NCBI GenBank assembly: GCA_964012805.1
Contig: CAXGUD010000006.1
Span: 64,001 to 128,000 of the forward strand
Source: an uncultured Bacteriovoracaceae bacterium
Lineage (GTDB): Bacteria > Bdellovibrionota > Bacteriovoracia > Bacteriovoracales > Bacteriovoracaceae
DNA length: 64,000 nt
Reading direction: 5' to 3'
Shown here piece by piece: positions 13,501-30,755 of the stretch (the first letter of the stretch is position 1; the number at the start of each line of letters is the position of its first letter). Position numbers and translations under genes: made by a program. A model generated the notes under the pieces. It made no database searches. It worked only from the letters and a program-made list of their open reading frames with translations, and was not told the DNA's origin.

Positions 13501-14639
13501 ATAAAGACCATTTGAAAAGAAGTGAGATCATAAAAAAGATCCGTTTGAGAAGCGATACTCAGAACGGTCCCATTCTTTTTACGATATTTGAAAAAATTAA
13601 TAATCAAGAAAATTTTCTTATGGAGGATTTTCTCCTTGTTTTAGAAAAATTAGAAGCCTCTGATGACAAAGACTTTAAAGGACGAGAATTGTTGGAAAGG
13701 TTAATACCAAAACAAGATTCGAAGTCGTCTTTAGGTGAACTTTTTCTTGGTCTAAAAAACCTTTTTAACTATGAAAACTTTGAGTTAATAACTTCCAACA
13801 ATCAAATTCAAGGAGAAAGCATAGAGACTTTAAAGGAAATCATTAATTCAAGACATTTAAATATTTTTCCTTATCTTCAAAGTTTAGATTTTATGAGAGT
13901 TTTAAGAAGTTATGTTTATTTGGATGAGGATAGTGAACAGAGTAGAAAACCAAATACAGTAGATGTTTTAATGGAGAATTTTGAAGGACTCAAATCTCAT
14001 CTAAAAGATAGATGGGATGATGGGGAGATACCTAACTGGGACGAAATGGATAAATTCTTAAAACATCTTGAAGACATACCAGTTAAGTATTCTTTAAGAA
14101 AGCTTGGTTCAATGGCAACAGAAATGGGTAAAGGTTTAGGTAAAAAGGTTAAGTTCGTTATGAAAGGTGATCAAGCTTCCCTACCTAAAGAAAAGTTAAC
14201 AATTTTAAAGGATGGAATTATACATTTGGTGAGAAACTCTATTGATCATGGTATTGAAGCACCAGAGATTCGAAAAAGTTTAGGTAAGGATGTTTTTGGA
14301 AAACTCGAGGTAACACTATCAAAAGAGAAATCAGGGGGGCTTTCATTAAGCATATCTGATGATGGTGGCGGTATCAAATTTGATAAAGTCTTAGATAAAG
14401 CCATTGAGCGCGGTATTATAAAGAACGCTGAAAAAGCAAGTTTAAGTTACCAAGACAAAGTCAATCTTATCTTTGAACCTCGACTAAGCACAAAAGAAAA
14501 ATTGACAGATATATCGGGAAGAGGAATTGGAATGGACGTCGTCAAGAAAAATATTAAAAGCCTTGGAGGTTCAATCGAGGTTATCACTGAGCTTAATAAA
14601 GGTACAAACTTTATTATACGTCTTGAAAAAATTGAATAA
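10578..14639 (+). CDS. 7TM-DISM sensor + PAS-like + two Hpt + CheA-type HATPase (class III histidine kinase)
   Basis: LKGEWSFYW, 7TM region, Hpt1 FRNCHTLKG (H665), Hpt2 RVLHGLKG (H797), HLVRNSIDHGIE, DDGGG, SGRGIGM; no CheW domain. Confidence 0.88.
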   Translation: MKASLLFFQIFFVKKKAAFLCALILCFFFHGSGFANDFSKKEKEFERGILDLSKRKNDGLKTIDLKGEWSFYWNKFLDPKSVLSGAIPKEDGFLKVPSSWKKSEFGNELMAPKGFGSYLLRVKGVPQKMALYFYPGRVKQTSKVFLIQGGRADVIFEAGIPGNKVDKELPQLLSTKKQKVVLEKGDFTLLIHASNFGYRDGGVAIAPRFYSKSNIKMDYFKMFSSGMLLIMVLYHFGLFLKRRGDKAALYFSLICLFMFFRHTIINDHQYFFMAPSYWAHQISVKLEFLGLSLTPFLFAGFLKEIFTGSFQKFFKISFVFSILLSLIVVVFPASVFTKMPFLIPMQINALGTILFGIIRFVILHFKKDKFAGYCLISMGIWFFTVLMDVLIIFNVINLEIKLTQFGFLFWILSQSYILSVKFSNAYETAERLSKDLQKEVKKQTKQAHEARERAEKSEKEVAGLMDNMRQSVFCIGREKEVIAPVSFYSETLFGQKIIGKSIYDVLYKGMDRRKESFGGLEMALSVIFGADDLQFDLLKDQLPTRLIVNTESKKTEKGENKVLKISNNPIFDNEGSLLKLMYVVEDISDVEALEQKMKEQKEEVSKKAGVIQELAGNKKEDLQNFFDDSYELLQLSIDELKRMRSEQLEGESGQKSLDIIFRNCHTLKGNSRIFGLSLISKKSHEVEGVLEVFQKEEEVKDVLENSLKSLYDLRGQVSEYFMVSRDLFGVESQDEIRFKNEIHELMLDFEYWIAQIYFQSRNTGYEPEGIKDLWKKLVDLDEDIREQILSSLVRVLHGLKGLSRALNLKSLSESIHQLEGVIYDFSPSIDKEDESTHERLESAYNEVINLARNLYLKSVDFKPLVLASDQWTELISEFIQIASLYFNGRSEDQKSIINRIYLFNTRASNFRFHFSPSIIRSVYDFFGGSSDSEKNKIKRAFNSIWLYLKWIIQIDIEKSVDFQLRDTLISYFDEDKDHLKRSEIIKKIRLRSDTQNGPILFTIFEKINNQENFLMEDFLLVLEKLEASDDKDFKGRELLERLIPKQDSKSSLGELFLGLKNLFNYENFELITSNNQIQGESIETLKEIINSRHLNIFPYLQSLDFMRVLRSYVYLDEDSEQSRKPNTVDVLMENFEGLKSHLKDRWDDGEIPNWDEMDKFLKHLEDIPVKYSLRKLGSMATEMGKGLGKKVKFVMKGDQASLPKEKLTILKDGIIHLVRNSIDHGIEAPEIRKSLGKDVFGKLEVTLSKEKSGGLSLSISDDGGGIKFDKVLDKAIERGIIKNAEKASLSYQDKVNLIFEPRLSTKEKLTDISGRGIGMDVVKKNIKSLGGSIEVITELNKGTNFIIRLEKIE

Positions 14640-16091: not shown

Positions 16092-16790
16092 TTAATTCTT
16101 ACTATCAGTCACAGCAGCAGCGTAAATGGCCATACCAAAGGCAATCTTGTTAACAAAGTCCGCTAGGTTATATACCAAATTCATTGTTCCAGCATCGGCC
16201 CCACTTCCTAGGTAACCGATGGCATAACCTATGGGATAGATTGCCCAACCAATAGTTACGATAAGCCTTAATGTATTAAATGCTTTTTGGCTAGAAGCAT
16301 TTCCGCTAGCGGCATTAACCTTACTAGCCTCTCCAGCGAAGATTTCGTAAATAATGTAAAGCCACCCTGCCATTCCTATGACAAAAGCAAGAGTTACATT
16401 CATTGCTTGGGTTTCTCCTAAATAACCCGCTACAAGCATTACTGTTGAGGAGACCAGCAGTCTCCAGAAAAGGCCTGATGCTACGGTCGTTACTGCAGCT
16501 AAGATCACATAAAATTCTACAATTTGAAGGGGGACAGTTATAAACCAATCGACATATCTAATTTCTGTTGGGGATTGTCCGCCAGTAAGCATCCATGCTT
16601 CTCTCATATAAAAATAATGCCAAGCTGCTATACCTGTTATCAAGCCTGCAATGGTCAGAGAAGTTTTCCACTTTTCTGAGACTCTGTCTCTTTCTAGAAA
16701 GAAGAAAGCTGTCGCCGCTACCATGGCCATGGAAATGACCCAAAAGGAAATAGCTACATGATCTCCTGATTTAAGAAGTAATTCTTTCAT
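16092..16790 (-). CDS. proteorhodopsin, DTE proton pump, Gln (blue-type) tuning residue
   Basis: 7 TM; WHY (H58); RYVDWFITVPLQIVEF (D81, T85, Q89, E92); NLADFVNK (D211, retinal K215). Confidence 0.97.
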   Translation of the reverse strand: MKELLLKSGDHVAISFWVISMAMVAATAFFFLERDRVSEKWKTSLTIAGLITGIAAWHYFYMREAWMLTGGQSPTEIRYVDWFITVPLQIVEFYVILAAVTTVASGLFWRLLVSSTVMLVAGYLGETQAMNVTLAFVIGMAGWLYIIYEIFAGEASKVNAASGNASSQKAFNTLRLIVTIGWAIYPIGYAIGYLGSGADAGTMNLVYNLADFVNKIAFGMAIYAAAVTDSKN

Positions 16791-17155: not shown

Positions 17156-17785
17156 TTACTCTTTTTTAAAAAGGCTTAGATATTCCTTAAGGCCTTCTTT
17201 TTCAAGGTCTTCTACTGGAATAAAGCGAAGAGATGCTGAGTTGATGCAATAGCGCTGCCCTGTTGGTTGAGGGCCATCGTTAAATAGGTGTCCAAGGTGG
17301 CTGTCGGCATGCTTTGAACGGACTTCTGTCCTTTTCATAAAAAGGCTATTGTCTTCTTTCAGCTTTAGGTTTTCTTTTTCTAGAGGAGCACTAAATGAAG
17401 GCCAACCTGTTCCGCTATCGTATTTATCTAGAGAACTAAAGAGGGGTTCCCCAGAAACAACGTCAACGTAAACTCCTGCCTTTTTATTATCCCAATATTT
17501 ATTTGAGAAAGGTCTTTCAGTTCCGTCTTCTTGAGTGACTTTGTATTCTAAATCCGTCAGTTTTTCTTTGAGCTCTTTTTTAGACATTGTTTTAAACCTT
17601 TTCCAGTGGCCAGGGGTTTTTGGGCCTTGATTTTTACTTTTATTGACAGAAGCAAGTGACCTGCTGTTTTCAGAAGGGCCATCCATCTCTGTTTGGTCAA
17701 ATTGGGCGAGTACGACTGTAAGCGTTAGTAGTCCTAAGCTGAGTTTTATAGTATAGAGTGTTCTTTTTTTGACCGGGTCTTTCAT
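17156..17785 (-). CDS. msrB: peptide-methionine (R)-S-oxide reductase with N-terminal export/anchor segment
   Basis: [35 protein letters not shown]; zinc-free type (no CxxC); hydrophobic N-terminus. Confidence 0.95.
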
Positions 17786-17847: not shown

Positions 17848-18369
17848 CTATAAAACTCCCGGCTTAATGGGATAGGTTTTATCATTAATTTCAAGGATAT
17901 AGACGCCATCTTTTTCAAAGATAAAGTTAGTGATTTCAATATAGCATTTTCTTGAAAACCTGCCCTTAACTTTTCCCTTCAGCGCCATAAAATAAAGAAT
18001 ATTATTTGTGTCAATGCTAAGTGTTTTGGGGTTGAGGATCTCTTTAATACCTCCCCTAAAAATCAGTGTAACTGAGAGAATTTTACCTTCCTTACTTTTT
18101 ATAATATCCAACGAAGTGGTAACGAGAGGTGTATCAAGGCATGTGACGAAATTCTTTTCTCCCTGGCAGTAGACGACATATTGAGGGAGAGTTTTACCTT
18201 CAATTAGGGGAAAAGCATCTGAGTCATTTTCATCTACAGGTTTTAAATGGCGCAAAAAAAAGCTTATAGTCTTCTCATCTAAAAGAGGCCTTCCTTCAAA
18301 AAGGAGCTCTCCCTCTTCATTTATTTCGTAGTGGTAAACTCTTTTTGAAGGAGGTTTTTTTCTTTTCAT
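17848..18369 (-). CDS. DUF4505/DUF1285-like (UPF0598-like) hypothetical protein
   Basis: YHYEINEEG...FFLRHL...CQGEKNFVTCLDTPLV pattern recalled from the UPF0598 family. Confidence 0.5.
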   Translation of the reverse strand: MKRKKPPSKRVYHYEINEEGELLFEGRPLLDEKTISFFLRHLKPVDENDSDAFPLIEGKTLPQYVVYCQGEKNFVTCLDTPLVTTSLDIIKSKEGKILSVTLIFRGGIKEILNPKTLSIDTNNILYFMALKGKVKGRFSRKCYIEITNFIFEKDGVYILEINDKTYPIKPGVL

Positions 18370-18480: not shown

Positions 18481-19458
18481 TCAACTTTTTTTATAAGAGT
18501 TTATAAACTTCTCTATCCCTTCCATTGTGTTGACTTTTGGTTGATAGCCTAGGATTTTTTTTGCCTTTTTAATATTTAAAGTTTGGGATTTTGCAAAGAG
18601 ATTACAAGTGTACCTCGTTAGGACTGGCTCTTTGTTGTTAAGAAAAAATTTGTGTACAATTTCACTTAAAAAGCAATAAGCATAAACAAAGTGGTAAGAT
18701 ATGAGCTTAGGGTCTCTTTTAAGACCCAATTGATTGAAAACGTGATCAATAATATACCAAAGTTTTTGTGGATTACCATCTGAAATATTAAAAATCTGTC
18801 CATTGGCAATGTCTTTTGAGAAAAGTGCACACCTAATGGCCTCAACGGCGTTATCTATATAAGTAAGGTCAGTTAGGTTGTTACCTTTTCCAATAGTCCT
18901 CAATCGTCCTTTATTATTGGCCCTTATTAACCTTGGGAAAATGGCCTCATCTCCGGGGCCAATAATGGCCCTAGGCCTTAGAATAATGGCGTTGGGAAAG
19001 TTTTCTAAAACACTTTTTTCGGCTTTAATTTTTGATTCAATATAATCATTGAGTGGTCTAGTGGTAATGGGGTCACTTTCCTTGATATCCAATAAATCTT
19101 TTGAGCTATGGTAAACACTAGGGCTAGAAATCAAAATAAACTTTTTAATTTTGTATTTTTGGGCCAATTGGGCGAGGTTTGAAGACGCTTTATAATTAAC
19201 CTCTAAAAAATCTTTTCTTTTTCCCCAAGGAGAAGATAAACCACCGCAATGAACAATATGGTCAAAGCCATTCACAATACTTTCCATTTTTTTATAATCA
19301 GTTAAATCGGCTTTTAAAAAGTGGACGCCTTTATTTAAAAGTTCCCTTCCTTTTTTTTCATTCCTTCCTAGGCCACTTAAATGATTAAAGTCTTTTTTTA
19401 AAATTTCACAGGTTCTCTGTCCTAAAAAACCAGTCGCTCCAGTAACTAAAACTTTCAT
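18481..19458 (-). CDS. extended SDR, 3-beta-HSD/OleD-like NAD(P)-dependent reductase
   Basis: TGATGFLG, HCGGLSSPWG, SSPSVY, YIESK (YxxxK), LRPRAIIGPGD. Confidence 0.9.
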   Translation of the reverse strand: MKVLVTGATGFLGQRTCEILKKDFNHLSGLGRNEKKGRELLNKGVHFLKADLTDYKKMESIVNGFDHIVHCGGLSSPWGKRKDFLEVNYKASSNLAQLAQKYKIKKFILISSPSVYHSSKDLLDIKESDPITTRPLNDYIESKIKAEKSVLENFPNAIILRPRAIIGPGDEAIFPRLIRANNKGRLRTIGKGNNLTDLTYIDNAVEAIRCALFSKDIANGQIFNISDGNPQKLWYIIDHVFNQLGLKRDPKLISYHFVYAYCFLSEIVHKFFLNNKEPVLTRYTCNLFAKSQTLNIKKAKKILGYQPKVNTMEGIEKFINSYKKS

Positions 19459-19476
19459 TATTTATTCCTTAAAAAG

Positions 19477-21249
19477 TTAATTCTTTTTAATAAGAAAATT
19501 ATCAATAACCAAGTAGTCTAAATCCGTAGTAAGAAACGTTGTTAAGGCATCTTCTATAGAGTGAATAATAGGCCGTCCCATAACGTTAAGACTCGTGTTT
19601 ACCAAAATAGGTACTTTTGTTATTTGATAAAAATCTGAAATCAATTGGTGGTAAAGGGGATTTAACTCTTTATGCACAGATTGAAGCCTTCCACTTCCAT
19701 CTTTATGGACAACAGCTGGTACCAGTGACCTAACACTTTCTTTAAAGAAAAGGGCCTTTTCCATATAGGGGGTTTTAACATAATTTTTAAAATAATCTTG
19801 CCCAAATTCATGAAGAATCGAGGGGGCTATAGGCCTATAAAACTCTCTTCCTTTAATTCGTGAGTTAATTTTTTCCTTCATTTCTTTCTTTCTAGGATCC
19901 GCCAGTATGGAACGGTTTCCAAGGGCCCTTGGCCCAAATTCCGCCCTTCCCTGAACCCATCCTAAAATTTTTCCATTGGCCAAAAGGGTGGCCACCTTTT
20001 TAGTGAGTAAGTTTTTATTATCAAATTCTTGAAAATTAACTCCTCTGTAGTCTAAAATTTTTTTAAGGTAATCTATGTCTGGTTCGGACCCTAAATAGGG
20101 CGAGGAACCAAGAACTGGCCACTTTAAAGACCTTTTCATTTTATTAATATGATACTTTTGGTATAAAAGGGCACCCAAAGAGTTTCCATCATCACCTGGG
20201 GCAGAAGGTATGTGAATTTGATCAAACCCAGCCTCTTCCAAGATTCTTCCATTTGTTAAAGAATTAAGTGCGCAACCGCCTCCATAGGCTAGGTTCTTTT
20301 CACCAGTTTTCACTTGTAATTGGTTGGCCAATTCGATCACAGTATCTGAGAAGGCCTTTTGAAAGTTATAAGCAAGATCAGCGGATTTCAAAACGTCCTT
20401 ATCCGCCGGTTTTCTAAATCCGCCTACTATTTTATTGAGTTTTGCTTTGTCTCTAGGGCCAAAATTTGTTCTAAGTTTAATTCCCTTAACTTTCATTTTT
20501 TCTTTAAAAAAATAATAAATTTCTTGATTGAATTTTCCATAAGCACTGAGCCCCATAACTTTCCACTCTTCTCCATGCAGGCAGGAAAAACCGCAGCATT
20601 CTGTGACGGCCGCATAAAGATAACCCAAACTTGCCCTGCTTTTATAAATGAGTTTGAAGTTATTATTTTTAAAATGATAAAAAGAACAGGATATTTCTTC
20701 TCCTGCTCCATCGAGTATCATGACGGCACATTGATTAAAGGTGGATGTATAAACGGCATTGGCAGCATGGGTAAGGTGATGGGTTGTTTTTTTGTGAGAA
20801 ACTTTATGAAGATAATCCCCCCATAAAAACTTTCTTAATTGAAAAAGAACGACCGGTAAACCTTTTAAATACCAAGTTTGAGAATATCTTGCTAGGGCCG
20901 TAAATGACTGGCAATCATCAAATAAAAAAGGTCTTTTTTTATTAAAAAAGGCAACTCTTCTATAAATTGAGTTAAAAATTTTGGCAAGGCCTCTTATATA
21001 GAAGGGAGGTTTCCAGGTAGTTCTTAAGGTAAGTTCAACTGGATTTTCAATAGGAATTCCTCTTTCTTTTAAAGTTTTTTTTAGCCCTTTTAATGAATGG
21101 AGGTCTCCTACAGAAAAAAGAGACCGCTTATTTTGGGAAAGCCTTTCAAGTCCTTCAGCATAGATTTTATCTTTGTAGCAAACCGCTAAAGATGGGTCAT
21201 GAAAAGTATTGCTATGACCTATAATTACCTTATTAATTTCATATTTCAT
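19477..21249 (-). CDS. carbamoyltransferase (NodU/CmcH/TobZ family)
   Basis: FHDPS, HHLTHA, DGAGE, KVMGLSAYG, GGCALN, GDDG, EFGPRALGNRS, HKDGSGRLQ, NTSLN. Confidence 0.93.
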   Translation of the reverse strand: MKYEINKVIIGHSNTFHDPSLAVCYKDKIYAEGLERLSQNKRSLFSVGDLHSLKGLKKTLKERGIPIENPVELTLRTTWKPPFYIRGLAKIFNSIYRRVAFFNKKRPFLFDDCQSFTALARYSQTWYLKGLPVVLFQLRKFLWGDYLHKVSHKKTTHHLTHAANAVYTSTFNQCAVMILDGAGEEISCSFYHFKNNNFKLIYKSRASLGYLYAAVTECCGFSCLHGEEWKVMGLSAYGKFNQEIYYFFKEKMKVKGIKLRTNFGPRDKAKLNKIVGGFRKPADKDVLKSADLAYNFQKAFSDTVIELANQLQVKTGEKNLAYGGGCALNSLTNGRILEEAGFDQIHIPSAPGDDGNSLGALLYQKYHINKMKRSLKWPVLGSSPYLGSEPDIDYLKKILDYRGVNFQEFDNKNLLTKKVATLLANGKILGWVQGRAEFGPRALGNRSILADPRKKEMKEKINSRIKGREFYRPIAPSILHEFGQDYFKNYVKTPYMEKALFFKESVRSLVPAVVHKDGSGRLQSVHKELNPLYHQLISDFYQITKVPILVNTSLNVMGRPIIHSIEDALTTFLTTDLDYLVIDNFLIKKN

Positions 21250-21338
21250 AAAATGGAGTCCCTTTAAAATTTTAAGATTTATCGGTAAGATTAAATTTTT
21301 AATCTTTGAAAAGAAGAATTTAAAAAAGGAATGGAAAA

Positions 21339-21596
21339 ATGGTGATTATCGGAAAAATATTCCTGTCAATCTTATGGGCAGTTTCTTTTACTTTTGTTTT
21401 AACCAATCTTTCAATTAATTTTTCTCCTTTTTTAAATGAAAACCTTGCTTCTTTACTTGTCATTTTTTTTATTATTCACCTAATTCAGTACTTTATTTTC
21501 GTTAAAAAACTAAGAAGGGAGCCTTTTAGGGGATACCATTTCTTTCAAATCTTATTTTTTGGAATGGTTCACGTAAGAGGATATAAAAAAGAATAG
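21339..21596 (+). CDS. small membrane protein (DUF1145-like)
   Basis: GKIFLSILW...IHLIQ...QILFFG pattern; 2-3 TM segments. Confidence 0.55.
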   Translation: MVIIGKIFLSILWAVSFTFVLTNLSINFSPFLNENLASLLVIFFIIHLIQYFIFVKKLRREPFRGYHFFQILFFGMVHVRGYKKE

Positions 21597-21707
21597 ATAT
21601 CAAAACCTACTAGAATTTTTTGCCTCTAATCTTTTATTTTTATCAATTAAAAAAAGTTAAAACTATTTTTTGCCGACCCTTTTCTAAATAGCAATCAAAG
21701 GAAAGTT

Positions 21708-22754
21708 ATGAAAATCGAAGCTGTGGCTTTGTCACTTCCTGAGCGGCAAATCTCTAATGATGATATCCTAGATTATATAAGAGAAAAAAGTAAAAACTCT
21801 TATAAGGGAGATTTAGAAAAATCTCTTCGGGAGGTAAAGTTTTTTCTTGGTCTTTGTGGTGCCCAAAATAGAAGGTGGGCGGCTCCCGGAGAAAACACGT
21901 TTAAAAAGCATACCGAAAAAGCCATTTTAGAGGTTTTAGAAAAGAGCAATACTCATCCGGAAGAAATTGATCTTCTGATTTATTCAAGTGTTGATAGGAA
22001 AGTTGCAGAGCCAAACGAAAGCTATCTACTAGCAAAAGCTTTAGGTTTGAAGAAAACCGAATGTTTTGACATTTTAGAAGCCTGTAATAGTTGGTCCAGG
22101 GCCACTCAAATTTCTCAAAGTTTATTAAAATCACCAGATTATAGAAAAGTCTTAGTTGTGACTGCTGAATACATGATTCATGAAGGAATGTGGGGACAGA
22201 ATGCCTTTCACGTAAAGTCTCCAGAAGAATTTGAATGGAAGTTCCCATCATATACATTAGGGGAAGGATCAACAGCCACTCTTCTCTCAAATGAAGGTGA
22301 AGATTGGAATTATAAATTCTTGGGAATGCCTGAGCATGCTGATTTGTGTATATGCCCTCTCGAAAATTTTAATGAACAAGAAACAAATATGAATGGTGTA
22401 AGTGTTGCTATGAATGGGAAAGGGGTATTTACTTCTTTTGGTAGAAAAATGGAGGTCCCAGGTAAAAAGGCCCTCATTGATATTTTAGATTCTTCAGCTG
22501 TTCCCCTCAAAGATATTGATATAATTTTCCCTCATTCTCACGCTAAAAAGGTTTGGAGTGATATTTCAAAGGAAGAAGAGTTAAATCTTCCGTTGTATTT
22601 TATTTTTCCAGAAACAGGAAACCTTGTGACAGGTTCAATTCCTGGAGCCATGAGTATGGCAATTGAGGAAAATGCGTTGAAAAGAAAAGACCTTGTAGCA
22701 GGCTGGATGGCCGCTGCCGGTATGTCCTTCTCTATGTACACTTTTAATTATTAA
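21708..22754 (+). CDS. 3-oxoacyl-ACP synthase III / OleA-like condensing enzyme
   Basis: Catalytic C126 (EACNS), H276 (FPHS), N305 (TGNL); SVDRKVAEP carries E101 at an OleA-like position; YTLGEG. Confidence 0.88.
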   Translation: MKIEAVALSLPERQISNDDILDYIREKSKNSYKGDLEKSLREVKFFLGLCGAQNRRWAAPGENTFKKHTEKAILEVLEKSNTHPEEIDLLIYSSVDRKVAEPNESYLLAKALGLKKTECFDILEACNSWSRATQISQSLLKSPDYRKVLVVTAEYMIHEGMWGQNAFHVKSPEEFEWKFPSYTLGEGSTATLLSNEGEDWNYKFLGMPEHADLCICPLENFNEQETNMNGVSVAMNGKGVFTSFGRKMEVPGKKALIDILDSSAVPLKDIDIIFPHSHAKKVWSDISKEEELNLPLYFIFPETGNLVTGSIPGAMSMAIEENALKRKDLVAGWMAAAGMSFSMYTFNY

Positions 22755-22770
22755 CGATTAAGGGCTTGAA

Positions 22771-24117
22771 TTGGAAAATATAAACCTTGTAAAAATAAGA
22801 CCCTTTTGGAAAACAAGATCATCTATAAATGATCCTTTGTCTTTTTTTGAGGAAATTGATAAAAAAGGCGAGTTTTGTCATTATAAAGGGTTCCTCTCTT
22901 TTACCTATGTGGGTAATCCAAAATTAGTTAAACAGGTGCTGGATAAAACGGGAACTAATTATAATAAAGAAAACCCTCTTTATGACAGATTTAGATTCAT
23001 ACTAGGTCAGGGGATGCTAACGAGTGAGGGGAAAAATTGGAGGGATCAGAAAAAGTCTTTTTCTCCTTTCTTTTCCAAAAATAATATTAGTAAATTTCTT
23101 CCTATAATTTTTAGAAATATGTCCCAAACATTAGATATTTGGAACAAATATGCAGAAAAAGAGGTTGCTCTTAACCTTTCTGAAGAGTTCTTTAACCTAA
23201 CACTTAAAATTATAGGTGAAATTATTTTAAGCGATGACTTAAAAGAACATCTTCTGGAAATAAGAAAGATAACAAAAGTTTTTAATGAGTATGTTGCCTC
23301 TCCTCCCATTCCTATTTTTTCTTCATCAAAAATCCCAACTCCCCTTAATTTGAAAGTTAAAAAAGCGAGGGACGGTTTTATAGATATTTTAAAAAAAATT
23401 ATTGAAAAAAGAATGTCAACTAAACAGAAAAGAGAAGACCTCTTACAAATAATACTTGATAAGAACCCAGATAAAATTACTCCTTTAATTCTTGATCAAA
23501 TACTAAGCCTTATTATTGCTGGTCATGAAACGACTTCAAATGCACTTGTTTGGACTTTTTTTCACCTCTCCAAAAACACCTCTGAAAAAGATAAAATTCA
23601 AAAACTTTTAGATAGAGAGATTAAAGGTCTTTTTCCTTCTTTTAAAGAATTAGAACTCTTAGATTACTTAAGGCAAATTATAAATGAGTCTCTTAGACTA
23701 TCACCGCCCGTATGGCTTATAACGAGAAAGTCGATAAAAGAAAATATTTTAGGTGGACACAAAATTAAGCCTGGTCAAATGATTGTTTTTTCGCCCTACT
23801 TTATTCACAGAAATGAAAAGTATTGGAAAAATGCTGCTGATTTTAGACCTGATCGTTTTGATAAAAATAAAAAAATAGAAAAAGATGCTTTCTTGCCTTT
23901 TGGCTTAGGCCCACACACTTGTATAGGCTCAAATCTTTCTATGATGCAAATGAGTCTTTTTTTAAGTGTCTTATTAAAGTCATTTGACTGGTCTTGTATA
24001 GGATCTTTCCCAAAACCCTTTCTATCCTTCACAATGGGTGTGAAAGATGGACCTATGGTTATTTTAAAAAAGAGAAAAAGAGTAAAAAGTGTTTTTCCTG
24101 AAAAAATAACAATTTAA
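22771..24117 (+). CDS. cytochrome P450
   Basis: AGHETT, ESLR (ExxR), FRPDRF, FGLGPHTCIG (heme C384). Confidence 0.96.
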   Translation: MENINLVKIRPFWKTRSSINDPLSFFEEIDKKGEFCHYKGFLSFTYVGNPKLVKQVLDKTGTNYNKENPLYDRFRFILGQGMLTSEGKNWRDQKKSFSPFFSKNNISKFLPIIFRNMSQTLDIWNKYAEKEVALNLSEEFFNLTLKIIGEIILSDDLKEHLLEIRKITKVFNEYVASPPIPIFSSSKIPTPLNLKVKKARDGFIDILKKIIEKRMSTKQKREDLLQIILDKNPDKITPLILDQILSLIIAGHETTSNALVWTFFHLSKNTSEKDKIQKLLDREIKGLFPSFKELELLDYLRQIINESLRLSPPVWLITRKSIKENILGGHKIKPGQMIVFSPYFIHRNEKYWKNAADFRPDRFDKNKKIEKDAFLPFGLGPHTCIGSNLSMMQMSLFLSVLLKSFDWSCIGSFPKPFLSFTMGVKDGPMVILKKRKRVKSVFPEKITI

Positions 24118-24133
24118 CGGAGCTATAAGTTAA

Positions 24134-25270
24134 ATGAAAAAAGACTTGATTAAAAATACCTGGAATCTTTTTTTAATTTTAATGAACCCTAAAAGATTAT
24201 CTTTTAATGGAATGCCAACGGCGTATCCTAAAACAAGTAAATGGAACCTTTTTCAATGGTGGGCCTGCTTTTTAACAAGGCATTATTTTGGTAAAAATTT
24301 GTTAATTAAAACTCAGAAAAAAGTTGAAAACAAAATCCTTAAGGATTATAAAAAGCATGGTAAACCAAAAGGGTATATTACACCACCTCGTTTTAAAGCA
24401 AGCGAAATTGATTCAGAAAAATTCAAAGAGATTGCCATTAAGACAAATTCACCAGTTATTATTGAGGGTTTTGCAAAAGATTGGGATTGTACAAAAAAAT
24501 GGTCACCTCAGTTTTTAAAGGAAAACTATAAAGATGAAGTCGTCCCTGTTAGGCGTGAAAGTGACAGACTAGATTCTGAAGGCTATATTTATGTTAATAG
24601 GACTTTAAGTGAGCTAGTTGACAACATTGAAAGTGGAGGTGTTCTTCAGGGGACTCTCTTAGAAAATATTTTCAATAATAATCCTGAACTTAGAGAAGAT
24701 CTTAATATCCCTAAGATTGAAGAGTATTGTTGTCTTACAAAAAGACAAGAGCTTCAATCAACTCAATTATTTATTACTGGTAAAAATGGTAGAACTGGTC
24801 TCCATTGTGCTTCAGGAATCAACTTTTTTATTAATGTTTATGGCCATAAAAAGTGGACCTTTGTTCACCCTCACCATACGATAGGGTGTTATCCAGACGT
24901 TAGAGAAGATATGTTTTATTCAAATAGCGCACTTGATTATTGGAAGTCTGACGAAGAACTGGAAAAGGAGGGATATACCCTTTGGCCTTATATTCCAAAA
25001 TATAAATTTACGCTTTCCCCAGGCGACGTTGTCCTGTCACCACAGTGGTGGTGGCATGCTGTCGACAATGAAGACACAACCATAGCTGTTGCCAACAGAA
25101 CTTTTAATAAACTATTAATGGGTAATAAAATTTTTGCTTTTTTAAACTTTTTCTCACCGACCTCTTTAAGATGTTATTATCGTTTTTTAAAAACTGGGTG
25201 GGGATCTGATGATTCAATAATTGAAGTTTGTGAACATAATGGAAGAGAAGCAGTAGGAAAAGGAAAATAA
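24134..25270 (+). CDS. JmjC/cupin_8 Fe(II)/2-oxoglutarate enzyme with H-x-A iron motif
   Basis: PVIIEG...DW...KWS; TGLHCASGINFF (H224, A226, N230), GHKKW (K239), LSPGD..LSPQWWWHAV (H308). Confidence 0.88.
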   Translation: MKKDLIKNTWNLFLILMNPKRLSFNGMPTAYPKTSKWNLFQWWACFLTRHYFGKNLLIKTQKKVENKILKDYKKHGKPKGYITPPRFKASEIDSEKFKEIAIKTNSPVIIEGFAKDWDCTKKWSPQFLKENYKDEVVPVRRESDRLDSEGYIYVNRTLSELVDNIESGGVLQGTLLENIFNNNPELREDLNIPKIEEYCCLTKRQELQSTQLFITGKNGRTGLHCASGINFFINVYGHKKWTFVHPHHTIGCYPDVREDMFYSNSALDYWKSDEELEKEGYTLWPYIPKYKFTLSPGDVVLSPQWWWHAVDNEDTTIAVANRTFNKLLMGNKIFAFLNFFSPTSLRCYYRFLKTGWGSDDSIIEVCEHNGREAVGKGK

Positions 25271-25301
25271 ATAGGAATTACTAATCAACAAGGAAGTCTA
25301 C

Positions 25302-26114
25302 ATGGTATTAAAAAATTTAATGAAGGTGTCTCTATTAAGTTTTACATTAACCTCAAGTCTTTATGGGGCTATGAGTGACTTTAAAAATAAGTCAGGAAAA
25401 CAGATCGCTGAAATGTTAGAGAAAAAAAACCTAGTTTATAAAACAGAAACTTATGATTTAGAATTGAAATATTATCACGATGATAATAATCCTTTTAAAA
25501 TAGTAAAAGGAAAGGCCATTACACAAGAAACTGCCGGTGGAAAAGGTCAAGGAAAGGCCATGGTTACTTTAAATGACAAAACGAAAGTTTATGTTGAAAC
25601 TAGAAACGGTAAAGAAGATATTCACATGATTAAATTTCCGGGATCAAAAAGAAGTGTTTCTTTTTCTTGGAAAAATAGTAATTTTAGTAAATCTTCTAAA
25701 TTCTTAGGAAGTGAAGCGAGTGTTGAAGATCTTACTTGTCATATCCTATCAAATTATAAACACAAATTTAGAAAGTTTTCTCAGGGTGGAAAAGTGGCGA
25801 TCCTGGAATTTACTCCAAAAAGGAAAAGCTACTACACATCAAAAGTTTACTACATTGATACAGACAAGTTTGTTCCTATTGAAATTATTTACTATAAAGG
25901 AAGTACAAAGCTTAAATCAATGGCCGTAAAGGAATACAAAAAATATAAAGTTCCAGGAAGTAGTAAAACGGTATACCGCCCTCATAGATTAGAAATGAAA
26001 AATAATGAGTATCTAAGGAAAAACAAAAAAACACTAGAAACCCATATGGTTATTTCTAATAGAGTACTTAATGGAAAAGTGAACTCTTCAGACCTAAACC
26101 CTAATAAAATGTAA
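25302..26114 (+). CDS. outer-membrane lipoprotein-sorting protein (LolA-like)
   Basis: Signal peptide, FLGSEASVEDL motif, position directly before an MMPL gene (typical pairing). Confidence 0.75.
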   Translation: MVLKNLMKVSLLSFTLTSSLYGAMSDFKNKSGKQIAEMLEKKNLVYKTETYDLELKYYHDDNNPFKIVKGKAITQETAGGKGQGKAMVTLNDKTKVYVETRNGKEDIHMIKFPGSKRSVSFSWKNSNFSKSSKFLGSEASVEDLTCHILSNYKHKFRKFSQGGKVAILEFTPKRKSYYTSKVYYIDTDKFVPIEIIYYKGSTKLKSMAVKEYKKYKVPGSSKTVYRPHRLEMKNNEYLRKNKKTLETHMVISNRVLNGKVNSSDLNPNKM

Positions 26115-26123
26115 AAAGATTAA

Positions 26124-28427
26124 ATGGTAAAGTGGGGAGTATGGATGAAGAATTTCAATATCTTTAAAATACTCCCTACCTTTCTTATAAAATCAAATAA
26201 AATTTTATTTACTTTTTCCCTCCTAACCGTTTTTATTTTCAGTTTAGGGGTTTTTTCATTAAAAAAAGACATTTCTCATCGTATCTGGTTTAAAAAGGGA
26301 GACCCCTTTTTAAATAAATATGACTCCTTTATTGAAAATTATGGAAATGATGACCTCTTAGTTATTATTTTAGAAAATGAAAAAGGTCTTTTTACACCAA
26401 GTTATGCTAAAGAATTGTATCTTCTTACAAAAAAATTAGAAAATGTCCCTCTTGTTCTAAGAGCGGAGTCAATGGCCAACGTTTTGTTTTCCACCCATAG
26501 ACCTCTAGATCATTCTAATTATAAATCCTCTCATATTCATTTTGATCATTTCTTTCCAGACCTAAAGTCTTTAGACAGCGCCTTTTTGGAAGAACGTAAA
26601 AAGAAACTAAATATTGTTAAAAATTTCAGGGACTTTTATTTAAGCTCAAACTTTAAAACCTCCATCATTTATTTATATTTAAAGAAGGTTAACCCTCCCG
26701 ATTACCAACTGACATTAAAAAAAACAAAGGAAATTCTTAAAGCGACTCTATCGAAAGAAACACGTTTTTTTATGACGGGAAATTCTGTTTTGGCCGAAGC
26801 TTATAAAAAAGCTCCCGTTGATGATATGAAACTAATTATGCCTCTCGGCCTTTTTATCCTTATTACTTTACTTTTTTTTATATTTAGAAATTTCCTCGGC
26901 GTTTTCATACCGCTAGGCCACTTATTTCTTTTAATTTTTGCCCTTTTAGGAATTCAGGGGCATTTAAAAATGACTATGAACAGTGTGACTTCCATGGCCC
27001 CACTTATTTTGATGGCCATAGGTTTGCTTGATTCTATTCATCTCTTAACCACTTATTACAAATCAAGGATGAAAAAAAGTCGTCTTTGGGCCCTTTTGTG
27101 CGCTATTAAAATTAATATTTTCCCAACTTTTTTAACGTCATTTACTACCGCCATAGGTTTTTTTGCTCTTTCAACATCTAAAATAGCGCCTATATCAAAT
27201 TTGGGAACAATATGTGGCATAGGAGTTTTATTGGCGTGGCCTTTAACTTATTTTTTTATTCCTTTTGTTTTACTTAAATTCTCAAAAAAATCTAAACCAA
27301 AAAACATTATTCCTTTTAAGGCCAAGCTTTTCCTTCATTTAATTAAAAACAAGAAAAAAATTTTTTTATCGAGTTCTTTCATTCTTATCCTTTTGGGGGG
27401 GGGCTTTGCTTTTCAAAATGAAGTTAATTCGGATTTTGAAAATTATTTCCCAGAGAAAACCCCTTTTAGAGTGGCCAATCAAAAATTGGAAAAAAACATT
27501 GGTGGATCTTCAACAATCCATCTTCTTATTCAAAACGAAGATGTTAGAAATCCTAAATTTTTAAAAAAAATTGAAGATTTAACTTTAAAATTAGAAGATT
27601 TGAAAGGGGTAACAAAAGTTTTTTCACTTCTAGATATAATCAAAAATTCAAGACAACTTCTTTTTGAAAATGACGAAAAATATAACTCCCTTCCACCTGA
27701 TAAAGAGCAAATTAAGGAATCCCTCTTTTTTTATCAATTATATGAAATGGAAGGCAAAGAACTATACCGGTATGCTAAAAGAGATTTTAGTGAGATGAAA
27801 ATCACTCTCTTTTGGAAAGGTTTCAGCTCCAAAGAAATTAAAAGAGGGGTGAGAGAAATAGAGAAATTATTAAAATATTATAATTTAAAAGGGAGTCTTA
27901 ATGGTAAGGTCCTTTTTATGAAAGGCTTGGATTCTTATATATTAAAAACGTTTCTTATGTCCCTTATTTTAACTATAACTTGCCTTACCCTCTTAATGAT
28001 GATCCTTTTTAAATCATTTAGAATAGGTCTTTTTGCCATGGTTCCAAATGTCATTCCATTAACCTTAGGTGTGGCGGCTTTGGGTCTTTTTGGAAAAGGG
28101 CTTGATGTTTCTGCCGTTTTAATAGGCTCTATTAGCTTAGGTATTTCCGTGGATGACACCATCTTTTTCATGTCCCATTATTATAGAAAAACCAAAAAGT
28201 TCGAAAACCATTTGAAGGCGATCGAAGAAACGATTAAGGAAACAGGACACACGCTTTATATTACAACAATTACTTTAGCCTCTATAATTGGCCTTTTCAC
28301 TTTGGGTTCTTTTGGCCCCAATAAAGTCTTTGGTTTTATGACCTCCTTTATCCTTATTTGCGCCTTTCTTTTTGACTTAACACTACTTCCAATTCTTTTA
28401 TTAAAAAAAAGGGATTATCAGACGTAA
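26124..28427 (+). CDS. MMPL/RND family lipid exporter
   Basis: Two repeats of TM1, periplasmic domain and five TMs; AIGLLDSIH, TSFTTAIGF, GISVDDTIFF. Confidence 0.9.
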   Translation: MVKWGVWMKNFNIFKILPTFLIKSNKILFTFSLLTVFIFSLGVFSLKKDISHRIWFKKGDPFLNKYDSFIENYGNDDLLVIILENEKGLFTPSYAKELYLLTKKLENVPLVLRAESMANVLFSTHRPLDHSNYKSSHIHFDHFFPDLKSLDSAFLEERKKKLNIVKNFRDFYLSSNFKTSIIYLYLKKVNPPDYQLTLKKTKEILKATLSKETRFFMTGNSVLAEAYKKAPVDDMKLIMPLGLFILITLLFFIFRNFLGVFIPLGHLFLLIFALLGIQGHLKMTMNSVTSMAPLILMAIGLLDSIHLLTTYYKSRMKKSRLWALLCAIKINIFPTFLTSFTTAIGFFALSTSKIAPISNLGTICGIGVLLAWPLTYFFIPFVLLKFSKKSKPKNIIPFKAKLFLHLIKNKKKIFLSSSFILILLGGGFAFQNEVNSDFENYFPEKTPFRVANQKLEKNIGGSSTIHLLIQNEDVRNPKFLKKIEDLTLKLEDLKGVTKVFSLLDIIKNSRQLLFENDEKYNSLPPDKEQIKESLFFYQLYEMEGKELYRYAKRDFSEMKITLFWKGFSSKEIKRGVREIEKLLKYYNLKGSLNGKVLFMKGLDSYILKTFLMSLILTITCLTLLMMILFKSFRIGLFAMVPNVIPLTLGVAALGLFGKGLDVSAVLIGSISLGISVDDTIFFMSHYYRKTKKFENHLKAIEETIKETGHTLYITTITLASIIGLFTLGSFGPNKVFGFMTSFILICAFLFDLTLLPILLLKKRDYQT

Positions 28428-28803
28428 GATAATGTAAGGGAAAACATCTTAATGAGAAATGATTTTAACTTCTTGTTTAAGTTATCTAAAAATTTTTTGA
28501 TATTCAATTAATTGAAGAAAGGTTTACAAATTTAAATGAATCATTTGCAATTGGTTATAGGTGGATTGATTTTTCAAATACCTATAAGAAATCAAAGCTT
28601 TTAACTTCGCTCCATATATTTAATACAAACCCAAATATTTTTTGGACTATTTTAAACCAAAAAGCCGACTATATTAAGCTTTTAGCGTATGCAAATGGAT
28701 CCTACCGCTCTGTGAGAAAAGCCGAGAAAGTCGATGGTTAAAGAAAAAAAAGAATACAAAAATTTATTATTCAATTCAAAAAAAAAGTCTAGATTTTTAT
28801 ATA

Positions 28804-29184
28804 CTAGTCTAAAGCGTATTCTATTTTAAGTATGGCGTATTCTTTACCTTCAGCTTTGAGATTAGAACTTGAGGAGGTTATATTTTTTTTTGTAGGATCA
28901 AAGTTTTTGTTATCGTATTCATACATTGGCTTTTTATCCAAATCAAGGAATGAAACCTTTTTTATCCAGCATTTTTTATCTTTATCACAATTAGATTTAA
29001 AAATAGCTGATACACCATTTTTTAATTGATCTATATCTTCTGAATATAATGCGGTTCCTAATGAAGGTGTGTAACTTTCATTAACTGTTTCAATTAAGGC
29101 CTTTCTCTGCATTTTAATATTAGGGTCAGTAGAGTTGCAGCTTAAGCTTAAGATAAGGATCATTAGTAATGACCAAAGTTTCAT
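28804..29184 (-). CDS. hypothetical lipoprotein
   Basis: Lipobox LSLSC after a hydrophobic N-terminus. Confidence 0.65.
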   Translation of the reverse strand: MKLWSLLMILILSLSCNSTDPNIKMQRKALIETVNESYTPSLGTALYSEDIDQLKNGVSAIFKSNCDKDKKCWIKKVSFLDLDKKPMYEYDNKNFDPTKKNITSSSSNLKAEGKEYAILKIEYALD

Positions 29185-29406
29185 TTACTTTCCCTTCTCA
29201 AAAAATAATTCCTTAATTACTATAGAGGTTTGAGTTTATGAATTCAACAATTTTGATAAAATTCGTGGGTTATGAAAACTTACAACACTCCCTAGAAATA
29301 AATCTAGTTTTTTTTATTTTCCTTTAAATTAAAGATTTCTATTCCTAGACAATATGCCTTGAAATTAGAGAAGCTATTATAAAAAGAAATATTTGGGGAG
29401 GGGTAA

Positions 29407-30402
29407 ATGGAATATAGATATTTAGGGAAGTCGGGTTTAAAAGTAAGTTCCCTTTCTTTTGGCTCTTGGGTTACTTTTTCCAACCAAGTTCAAACAGAAA
29501 GTGCCGTTGAAATGATGGCCATGAGCTATGATGCCGGAATTAACTTTTTTGATAACGCTGAAGTTTATGCTGATGGTGAATCAGAAGTAATCATGGGCGA
29601 TGCCCTTCAAAAGCTAGGCTGGGCGAGGGACACTTATTGTGTTTCAAGTAAGGTTTTTTGGGGAGGTCCGAAACCAACTCAAAGAGGCCTTTCTAGAAAG
29701 CATGTGAAAGAAGCATGCCATCAAGCTTTAAAAAGGCTCAAGGTTGATTACCTAGACCTCTACTTTTGTCATAGGCCGGATCAGGATACACCGATTGAAG
29801 AAACGGTTAGGGCCATGGACCAATTAATCCAAGAAGGAAAGGTTCTCTATTGGGGAACTTCAGAGTGGTCGGCAACAGAAATTCAAAAAGCTTATGGTGT
29901 TGCCAGAGAATACAACCTGACTCCTCCTACCATGGAGCAACCCCAGTACAATTTATTTCACAGGGAAAAAGTTGAAAAAGATTTTTTACCACTTTATGAA
30001 GAGGTTGGCCTTGGAACAACGATCTGGTCTCCTTTAGCGAGTGGAATTCTCACAGGTAAGTACTCTAATGGCATTCCTGATGGGAGCCGGGCCAGCTTAA
30101 GTGGTTTTGAGTGGATCAAGGATCAAATTTTATCTCCCAAGGGGCAAGATAAGGTAAAAAAGGCAAAACAATTGGAAGTAATCGCAAAAGAATTAGGTTG
30201 TAGTTTAACTCAGCTTTCTGTTGCCTGGTGTCTTAAAAGTCCTTTTGTTAGCACTGTTATTTTAGGAGCAAGCAAGGCCAGTCAGCTTTCAGAAACGATT
30301 GAGGCCTTAGAATTTCTTCCCAAATTAACGGATGATATTATGGAAAAAATAGAAGGGATTGTAGAGTCTAAGCCTAAACCAGTTATTGACTGGAAAGGTT
30401 AG
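29407..30402 (+). CDS. aldo/keto reductase (Kv beta-subunit-like)
   Basis: YRYLGKSGLKVS, FDNAEVY, DLYFCHRPD, YWGTSEWS, WSPLASG. Confidence 0.95.
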   Translation: MEYRYLGKSGLKVSSLSFGSWVTFSNQVQTESAVEMMAMSYDAGINFFDNAEVYADGESEVIMGDALQKLGWARDTYCVSSKVFWGGPKPTQRGLSRKHVKEACHQALKRLKVDYLDLYFCHRPDQDTPIEETVRAMDQLIQEGKVLYWGTSEWSATEIQKAYGVAREYNLTPPTMEQPQYNLFHREKVEKDFLPLYEEVGLGTTIWSPLASGILTGKYSNGIPDGSRASLSGFEWIKDQILSPKGQDKVKKAKQLEVIAKELGCSLTQLSVAWCLKSPFVSTVILGASKASQLSETIEALEFLPKLTDDIMEKIEGIVESKPKPVIDWKG

Positions 30403-30755
30403 TTTAAGGCATTCATGATATCTGAGTAAAGTGAATTTAGCTTGTCAATGCCGACGAGGCAAAAACCCATGGTCTTTGAAAACTCAAAGTCCTCAGGGGT
30501 TCCTTTTCGGCAAACAATGACAAGTCTGGTTTCATTTTTATCTGCCTCATCAAGGTATTGATCCAAGGTCTGTCCACCAGATTGAAGAAAATCCGTTGTG
30601 TTTGTCTTAGGAAGGCATACAATACCGTACTTTTTCCCTTCGAATGTTGTCTCAAAGTCCCATGTGGAGTTTTTTAGCCTTTGGTTTACGTCGTGATTAA
30701 ACTGTTTAAAAATTAGTGAGCATCTGGCAAGGAACTCTTTTTCTTTATCTGCCAT
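30399..30755 (-). CDS. hypothetical protein
   Basis: 118-aa ORF with GGAG RBS; 4-bp convergent overlap with the AKR gene. Confidence 0.6.
   Translation of the reverse strand: MADKEKEFLARCSLIFKQFNHDVNQRLKNSTWDFETTFEGKKYGIVCLPKTNTTDFLQSGGQTLDQYLDEADKNETRLVIVCRKGTPEDFEFSKTMGFCLVGIDKLNSLYSDIMNALN

Follow-up and report, generated by a model that had tools for sequence, protein, structure and literature searches.

The window analysed here is a stretch of 64,000 nucleotides from an uncultured Bacteriovoracaceae bacterium (contig CAXGUD010000006.1, assembly GCA_964012805.1). Positions 18481 to 28427 of the window hold a compact cluster of eight genes in two divergent arms, which brings together a stand-alone ketosynthase (KS), a short-chain dehydrogenase/reductase (SDR), an O-carbamoyltransferase (CT), a cytochrome P450, a cupin, a LolA-like protein, an MMPL transporter and a small membrane protein. 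Homology suggests, with a probability of about 0.4, that the eight genes form one pathway, in which two acyl chains would be condensed head to head, reduced, O-carbamoylated, oxidised by the P450, chlorinated by a radical mechanism and exported.

Gene content and organisation of the cluster

The genes of the cluster, and one neighbour, are the following:

18481..19458, minus strand: extended SDR of 325 amino acids, OleD-related, a predicted beta-keto reductase
19477..21249, minus strand: O-carbamoyltransferase of the CmcH/NodU/TobZ family, 590 amino acids
21339..21596, plus strand: small membrane gene, 85 amino acids, two predicted helices, DUF1145-like
21708..22754, plus strand: stand-alone KS assigned to the NocG/PpyS clade, 348 amino acids, with E101, C126, H276 and N305
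22771..24117, plus strand: cytochrome P450, 448 amino acids, TTG start
24134..25270, plus strand: cupin, a JmjC/Cupin_8 Fe/2-oxoglutarate enzyme of 378 amino acids with H224-C225-A226...H308, an OocP-related predicted radical halogenase
25302..26114, plus strand: LolA_like (PF17131) periplasmic protein, 270 amino acids
26124..28427, plus strand: MMPL/HAE3 transporter of the resistance-nodulation-division (RND) type, 767 amino acids, about 11 helices by a crude scan
17848..18369, minus strand: DUF4505 protein, 173 amino acids, on the strand of the SDR and 111 bp downstream of it, of uncertain membership in the cluster

All eight genes are intact, with their catalytic motifs present. The left arm consists of the CT and the SDR, separated by 18 bp, while the gaps between the KS, P450, JmjC, LolA-like and MMPL genes of the right arm are 16, 16, 31 and 9 bp. 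The 85-amino-acid open reading frame (ORF) lies between the arms, 89 bp from the CT start on one side and 111 bp from the KS on the other. These coordinates bear out the ORFs, strands, gaps and two divergent arms described in an earlier note on this DNA (the original prediction). Its carbamoyltransferase, P450, JmjC, LolA-like and MMPL labels are confirmed by Pfam matches above cut-offs, which comprise Epimerase/3Beta_HSD, Carbam_trans_N and Carbam_trans_C, ACP_syn_III_C, p450, Cupin_8/JmjC, LolA_like and MMPL.

A second metagenome contig (L096), possibly from the same sample, carries the same gene set at 99-100% protein identity. In a second lineage (L097), only the right arm is found, with four genes shared with the window at 84-96% protein identity. 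Synonymous codon differences exceed non-synonymous ones in the KS (88:12), the JmjC gene (93:17), the LolA-like gene (63:11) and the P450 (103:74). The four genes are therefore under selection in the second lineage, with a smaller excess in the P450, the fastest-diverging gene of the right arm.

The GC content of the cluster is 32.9%, compared with 35.3% for the genome; since this lies at the 14th percentile among 725 windows of 10 kb, the composition is not anomalous. A foreign origin was considered on this basis and set aside, as neither GC nor composition sets the cluster apart. A promoter scan returned 39 sites (37.4 in shuffled sequences) and a terminator scan returned 6 (8.7 in shuffled sequences), without excess over the shuffles in either case, so that no operon structure is claimed from the scan. 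Among four RNA-library runs, one (X1) yielded contigs, each with 1-8 differences, over the 3' part of the cupin gene and over much the greater part of the LolA-like gene. Another (X3) gave short pieces outside the biosynthetic genes, except for an intergenic stretch near 21260, and two runs gave no contigs on the cluster. These matches are not counted as evidence of expression, because they are contigs and DNA carry-over is possible.

Clade and predicted reaction of the ketosynthase

A protein search with the KS returned 48 matches, 46 of them at 32% identity or above and the next at about 24%. E101, C126, H276 and N305 do not vary across 42 aligned homologues. The catalytic residues of NocG are E100, C125, H275 and N304, and those of OleA are E117, C143, H285 and N315 (PMC9486936). 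The Glu-Cys-His-Asn set of OleA is thus also present in the window KS. Four cyanobacterial loci contain a 347-amino-acid KS in a noc context with exactly the residues E100, C125, H275 and N304 of NocG; in the only annotated one (L043), its neighbours are a fatty acyl-AMP ligase (FAAL), a kinase-aminotransferase and an acyl-dehydrogenase.

The window KS aligns along its full length with the L043 enzyme, which stands in here for NocG, at 37/58% (identity/similarity) over 350 amino acids, whereas its match to the genome's own OleA is 29% over only 156 amino acids. Because of this full-length match with residues in register, as opposed to a partial match to OleA, sequence places the KS in the NocG/PpyS clade, and the original 'OleA-like' label is replaced. 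The NF006720/PRK09258 model, which we take to be OleA-type, gives 75.5 bits against a cut-off of 285, leaving the window KS outside the OleA family. Identity to the Xanthomonas OleA structures is about 19%, and OleA, FabH and PqsD could not be told apart by a fold search. Furthermore, the genome has a separate oleABCD operon on contig C5, where its OleC and OleB matches lie, none of them being in the cluster.

It has been reported that NocG performs a non-decarboxylative condensation of two acyl-acyl carrier protein (acyl-ACP) thioesters, with no detectable product from two acyl-CoAs, and that PpyS, at 36/57% to NocG, forms its sister clade and has the same four catalytic residues (PMC9486936). 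The clade and the intact E/C/H/N set predict an OleA-like reaction for the window KS, namely a non-decarboxylative condensation. However, the earlier statement that OleA-type enzymes condense two acyl-CoAs without an ACP is of doubtful application to this KS, because NocG made no detectable product from two acyl-CoAs. Neither NocH (FAAL-ACP) nor NocF, the neighbours of NocG proper, was found beside the window KS.

Neighbourhoods of the ketosynthase family

The survey of the KS family covered 80 genome loci (160 confirmed) and 80 metagenome loci (418 confirmed), many of them short. Among the 157 loci with a full-length KS, neighbouring genes encode NocF-like proteins (52), FAALs (45), sensor-kinase-family proteins (38), OleD-like SDRs (15) and OleC-like ligases (12). 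All 12 loci with an OleC-like gene rank among the nearest matches to the window KS. The OleC-like proteins match the PRK09274 and olefin beta-lactone synthetase models best, under the cut-offs of the latter, and no OleB homologue was found beside them in these 12 loci. The oleACD pattern without oleB is taken to indicate beta-lactone formation (PMC7064751).

In trees built from 65-66 sequences (selected at 72% identity, PpyS not among them), the window KS groups with four representatives from OleC/OleD loci (FastTree 0.84, IQ-TREE 50.5). The next IQ-TREE node, which adds two loci without OleC, has a support of 99.6. The small membrane gene points in the same direction: 11 of the 12 OleC-type loci have a homologue, and a profile of eight such genes matches only the 85-amino-acid ORF in the six frames of the genome (E 2.2e-6). 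The nearest KS with context (L098, 45%) lies with OleC, OleD, a reductase, an acyltransferase, a P450 and MMPL. The clusters around the nearest KSs of known context have no oleB but contain OleC- and OleD-like genes; the small membrane gene is present in most of them and MMPL in some. The window cluster looks like an OleC-less derivative of this NocG-clade OleC/OleD cluster type.

Several of these loci are of interest in their own right. Apparently uncharacterised oleB-less clusters in Thalassolituus, Pseudomonadales and Aquabacterium-like genomes (L016, L017, L019-L025, L098-L100) combine a NocG-clade KS, a 345-amino-acid protein with no Pfam match, the small membrane gene, OleC- and OleD-like genes and a second SDR, and are candidate beta-lactone producers. 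In other loci (L116:10001-13640, L088:8874-13571, L072, L075 and L141), from several Burkholderiales and metagenomes, a NocG/PpyS-clade KS, sometimes duplicated, lies directly upstream of a membrane sensor kinase, which looks like a signal synthase/receptor pair. In Endozoicomonas (L081:7874-11062), the KS follows thiamine-dependent E1 alpha and beta genes, presumably an acyloin-type arrangement.

The SDR and its subfamily

The SDR contains the GxxGxxG (at 7) and YxxxK (at 139) motifs, and the OleD model is its best match, at 189.7 bits with a cut-off of 580. It is 28-31% identical to OleD-type enzymes and 44-59% identical to the SDRs of clusters with a PRK07204-type ketoacyl-ACP synthase III (KAS III), most of which have ATP-grasp, metallo-beta-lactamase or F390-synthetase genes. 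In a tree of 10 sequences, the SDR pairs with an F390-cluster SDR (0.992), sister to OleD. The best solved relative is a sterol-4-carboxylate 3-dehydrogenase; the tree nevertheless places the SDR with OleD-like partners of KAS III and not with the sterol SdmB-type SDR. The original 'OleD-like' label thus holds for relatedness and motifs, but not for the subfamily.

This subfamily occurs in nine of 237 family genomes, the window genome included. In four of the eight others (G314, G399 and G522, of one genus, and G428), an HCA or HSA cupin accompanies a KAS III and the same SDR subfamily, although in G399 the three genes are split over two short contigs; the G314 locus also has MMPL. In the remaining four, no cupin was found within the fetched stretch.

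The PRK07204-type KAS III and SDR clusters (L210:9466-19086, L271:8980-17877, L274, L275 and L276) extend across eight family genomes, and some of them also encode an HxA cupin, a Coq4-like protein, a formyltransferase, a Rieske protein, a desaturase or MMPL.

The cupin as a likely radical halogenase

A profile search with the cupin retrieved 428 representatives at E<=1e-30. The HxA...H motif is present in 138 of 151 sequences (the best 150 representatives plus the window cupin), with HCA in 114. By profile, the solved structure closest to the window cupin is the halogenase OocP (8a82, 'Fe(II)/aKG-dependent halogenase OocPQ'; E 7.7e-44), which has an HQG motif. The structural model (predicted local distance difference test score, pLDDT, of 83) has cupin-fold matches, among the listed ones of which OocP has the highest query TM-score (0.68) and JMJD5 comes first by E-value. 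H224, A226 and H308 align with the H-Q-D of JMJD5 and the H-Q-G of OocP, giving the arrangement of two His and one Ala/Gly.

It has been described that all reported radical halogenases have this 2His-1Gly/Ala arrangement, the Asp/Glu ligand being lost (PMC13489965). In the same predicted radical-halogenase atlas, cluster 2 contains PF13621 proteins that include a 389-amino-acid Serratia plymuthica entry, Dickeya and seven Bdellovibrionota rows; the main text of the atlas does not name OocP (PMC13489965). The window cupin is therefore, as judged from its sequence, a relative of OocP and likely a radical halogenase, in a family already predicted to halogenate. The HxA motif given in the original prediction is present, and its 'possibly halogenated' is strengthened to a probable halogenase by this motif, the OocP relation and the atlas family.

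The cupin family is found in 27 of 401 phylum genomes, mostly in other contexts, and no cupin match was found in three OleC- or noc-type genomes (L097 and L098 being left out of this comparison).

Other cupin loci deserve mention. The closest cupins with context (HCT, 39-40%) share a cluster with ThiF, beta-eliminating lyase, MAPEG and glutathione S-transferase-like genes (L243:5779-19280 with L245:1-1472, and L246:9381-16668), in a Pseudomonadales genome and in a genome from a sample of the cyanobacterial phylum. L243 adds an FeeM-like N-acyl amino acid synthase, LolA_like, DUF1302 and MMPL, and L246 a heme-oxygenase-like gene. An HxD cupin clade (L212, L214, L216, L217, L209 and L215) has a B12-binding radical SAM neighbour in L209, L212, L214, L216 and L217, with glycosyltransferase and YdjC genes in most of these. 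Two divergent cupins (HTA and HME) adjoin a CLC chloride channel gene (L222:7447-11304 and L224:8456-12294), a suggestive pointer to a halogenase.

The carbamoyltransferase and a Planktothrix sterol cluster

Both domains of the CT, PF02543 and PF16861, are complete, and its solved relatives are NovN (E 3e-68), TobZ and GdmN. The motif stretches that we take to bind metal and substrate are present. Close homologues, including myxobacterial and deltaproteobacterial entries, are 43-61% identical. The annotated plasmid relatives examined lie in a trans-acyltransferase (trans-AT)-type polyketide cluster, beside type I polyketide synthase (PKS) genes and in a sterol cluster of Planktothrix. These polyketide and sterol contexts suggest that the CT subfamily tailors lipophilic natural products. 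Of the 20 plasmid records listed (out of 472), the Planktothrix CT (43%) scores highest in bits, and the same cluster holds an HCA cupin (30%) that is the best plasmid match to the window cupin. From this co-occurrence, the cupin-CT pair appears to have been assembled at least twice.

The sterol-type cluster lies on plasmid p2 of Planktothrix agardhii No.2A (NZ_LR882940.1; L226:3145-24536 and L227:16557-19165). It encodes a probable squalene epoxidase, a squalene synthase, an oxidosqualene cyclase (DCTAE), four P450 ORFs, an SdmB-like SDR, three Rieske proteins and an emopamil-binding protein, together with the HCA cupin and the carbamoyltransferase. It is a candidate source of cyanobufalins, which presumably carry chlorine. 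The literature search returned no paper tying cyanobufalins to a gene cluster. Cyanobufalins are cardiotonic steroids from Planktothrix-dominated blooms (PMC7024214).

The P450 and the export genes

The heme Cys, I-helix and ExxR motifs of the P450 are intact. The N-terminus of the LolA-like protein reads like a signal peptide, and its gene adjoins that of the RND transporter, as in the aryl polyene clusters, where a LolA-like and RND pair has been suggested to bring the aryl polyene lipids to the outer membrane (PMC8253772).

The C-terminal 171 amino acids of MMPL are 94% identical to a protein at the same site in a genome of the same genus (G001), at a contig end and with the same downstream genes. 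The window has a 126-amino-acid ORF with no Pfam match downstream of MMPL (28428-29400), where G001 has a 360-amino-acid HNG cupin, and about 200 bp beside this ORF remain 77% identical between the two. The HNG cupin was considered as a cluster member and left out, because it belongs to a different clade and its relative in a second family genome (G002) lies apart from any such cluster.

Distribution of the cluster

The full gene set was found only in the window genome and in L096, and the sources carrying the KS include Tara. KS and CT proteins at 87% and 83% identity occur on short contigs, and CT paralogues are found in G001 (44%) and in the window genome itself (39%). The KS is absent from G001 and G002 (72% and 68% complete), although in G001, whose contig ends inside MMPL, this absence cannot be judged. 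The DUF4505 gene is present in one of the 160 KS loci (L096) and was not found in G001 or G002.

Taken together, the restricted gene set, the right arm in L097, the MMPL site in G001 and the proteins at 87% and 83% show a lineage-restricted mosaic kept in at least two lineages. Conserved co-occurrence of the seven-gene set, which the original prediction had proposed as a check, was not observed outside this lineage in the 160 KS loci, 237 family genomes and 401 phylum genomes. Only subsets recur, and their distribution suggests independent assembly: two other genera combine an HxA cupin with KAS III and SDR, and Planktothrix combines an HCA cupin with a CT of the same subfamily as that of the window.

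Proposed pathway and competing explanations

In the proposed pathway, the KS would catalyse a non-decarboxylative Claisen condensation of two acyl thioesters to a 2-alkyl-3-oxo acid, as its clade and E/C/H/N residues suggest. Since the cluster has no ACP or ligase, the acyl-ACP or acyl-CoA would be borrowed from housekeeping metabolism. The SDR would then give a 2-alkyl-3-hydroxy acid or, after loss of CO2, reduce the ketone to a dialkyl carbinol. As there is no OleC in the cluster (no AMP-binding gene was found in 18481-28427), the hydroxyl would not be closed to a beta-lactone; instead, the CT may cap a hydroxyl made by the SDR or the P450 as a carbamate. A contribution in trans from the OleC encoded on C5 is conceivable. 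The HCA cupin would place chloride on an unactivated C-H, the P450 would oxidise the chains, and carbamoylation and chlorination could take place in either order. Finally, MMPL may flip the product out and the LolA-like protein carry it to the outer membrane or beyond. The earlier reading is supported in its outline: the genes look like a natural-product cluster of the lipid type, which combines a condensing enzyme that works without decarboxylation, a carbamoyltransferase, a likely halogenase and genes for export.

A bolder version is doubtful. It holds that the product is a chlorinated, O-carbamoylated, mycolate-like lipid of the outer membrane, and that the HCA JmjC cupins (several hundred sequence clusters) are a PKS-independent family of lipid and steroid chlorinases travelling with one CT subfamily, which would also explain the halogen chemistry of the orphan Planktothrix sterol cluster.

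Several observations weigh against a single halogenating pathway. The linkage of the two arms rests on the window genome and the near-identical L096. Among the 160 KS loci, the CT occurs in two (L096 and another at 29%), as do the JmjC and the LolA-like gene (L096 and L097 in each case). A single family genome out of 237 contains the KS. For the CT (E<=1e-95), with up to three candidates per genome scored, the count is one in 401 phylum genomes. Neither a KS nor a CT was seen in 14 cupin loci taken from two other groups, and KAS III, SDR and MMPL lie within 10 kb in at least one of 20 phylum cupin loci. The SDR is not an orthologue of the OleD of the sister clusters (28-30%, against 44-59% to the F390-type enzymes), its subfamily being that of F390-type clusters, although a beta-keto reductase is still predicted. 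The KS is as far from the noc-type enzymes as PpyS is from NocG. As for halogenation, OocP works as a heterodimer with OocQ and chlorinates during PKS chain elongation (PMC11260071), while the window's own contig (C6) has no ACP match, the six ACP-like matches of the genome lying on other contigs. Moreover, seven of the ten nearest cupins in a tree of 53 sequences are H-C-T and one is H-C-S, not Ala/Gly, and HxD clades exist in the wider cupin family.

These last points favour a pathway that makes the same carbamoylated branched lipid without halogen, with the HCA cupin acting as a hydroxylase or desaturase. The Cys next to the first His (C225), invariant in the 19 closest sequences and replaced by Gln in OocP, fits this as well. 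However, the change from Asp/Glu to Ala/Gly marks all reported radical halogenases (PMC13489965), OocP is the closest solved relative and the P450 is already there for hydroxylation, which makes this explanation unlikely. Less likely again, the arms may do separate jobs, or the unit may import and modify an outside lipophile, for example a sterol taken from prey or particles. The two arms diverge in orientation and differ in ancestry, the cupin-CT pair and the best solved relative of the SDR both have sterol connections, and sequence does not reveal the direction of MMPL transport. Nevertheless, a condensing KS heads the right arm, the reductase of the sister clusters is supplied here only by the left arm, the SDR groups with OleD-like KAS III partners and not with the SdmB type, and there is no outer-membrane receptor gene in the cluster. 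A PpyS-like KS, finally, could join a beta-ketoacyl and an acyl thioester into an alpha-pyrone, decorated by the P450, the cupin and the CT as a signal or antibiotic. PpyS belongs to the sister clade with the same four residues (PMC9486936), and the sensor-kinase/response-regulator-family neighbours in 38 of 157 KS loci offer a signalling context. This is slightly less probable still, given that a pyrone needs no reductase, that no kinase gene adjoins the window KS and that, in the trees without PpyS, it groups with OleC/OleD-associated and not with kinase-associated enzymes.

Relation to known systems

The literature search for the combined enzymes returned only the nocuolin paper, in line with the earlier view that the combination matches no characterised pathway. 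The cluster type was not found described in a search that covered few subscription journals and no MIBiG, and nothing useful was found on enacyloxin as a precedent for chlorine plus carbamate. Each enzyme type is known, and the combination appears to be undescribed.

The nocuolin A pathway shares with the window cluster a KS clade, the set of four catalytic residues and, by prediction, a head-to-head condensation without decarboxylation (PMC9486936). However, the cluster lacks the FAAL-ACP (NocH), the kinase-aminotransferase (NocF) and the genes for N-N chemistry, and has instead the SDR, the CT, the P450, the HCA cupin, the LolA-like protein and MMPL. The oleACD beta-lactone clusters of the lipstatin and nocardiolactone type likewise pair a condensing KS with an OleD-related SDR, without OleB (PMC7064751). 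Their NocG-clade versions (L016, L017, L019-L025 and L098) share the small membrane gene, and some also MMPL or a P450, with the window cluster, which differs in having no OleC, another SDR subfamily and an added CT and cupin. The olefin pathway (oleABCD) is similar in the reaction type of its first two steps, but the window KS and SDR are only about 29-31% identical to the genome's own oleABCD proteins on C5, and fall under the OleD and PRK09258 cut-offs.

The oocydin halogenase OocP (8a82; PMC11260071) shares with the window cupin the Cupin_8 fold and two His without an acidic ligand; the window enzyme differs in its HCA motif (HQG in OocP), in a structural-alignment identity of about 18% and in having no trans-AT PKS or ACP nearby. 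In the aryl polyene clusters, ApeL/ApeM provide a LolA-like gene adjoining an RND/MMPL gene in a lipid cluster (PMC8253772), whereas the cluster here has no type II PKS, ACPs or acyltransferases, its periplasmic protein is PF17131 and no LolB-like gene was recognised. The photopyrone synthase PpyS, a sister KS clade with the same catalytic residues, contrasts with the window KS in context, which here includes a reductase and, for the nearest KSs, OleC and OleD.

Should the single-pathway reading be correct, carbamate capping would join olefins, beta-lactones and nocuolin as a fate of the product of head-to-head condensation, and halogenated surface lipids would be added to a marine lineage with little-studied metabolites. 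The cluster is rare and comes from uncultivated material, with each step proposed from homology. It would nonetheless offer, within 10 kb, a compact system in which to test a large cupin family whose halogenation is so far only predicted, except for the PKS-bound OocP, and a halogenase acting on free or ACP-bound alkyl chains would have biocatalytic use.

Flanking genes

Just left of the cluster lie a microbial rhodopsin gene (16092-16790) and a gene for a secreted-looking MsrB (17156-17785). Further upstream, two large membrane sensor proteins with CheA-like ends are encoded at 5819-8575 and 10578-14639. On the other side, a 118-amino-acid protein is encoded at 30399-30755; its Atlas look-alikes include restriction-nuclease-type families, a resemblance at the level of a lead.

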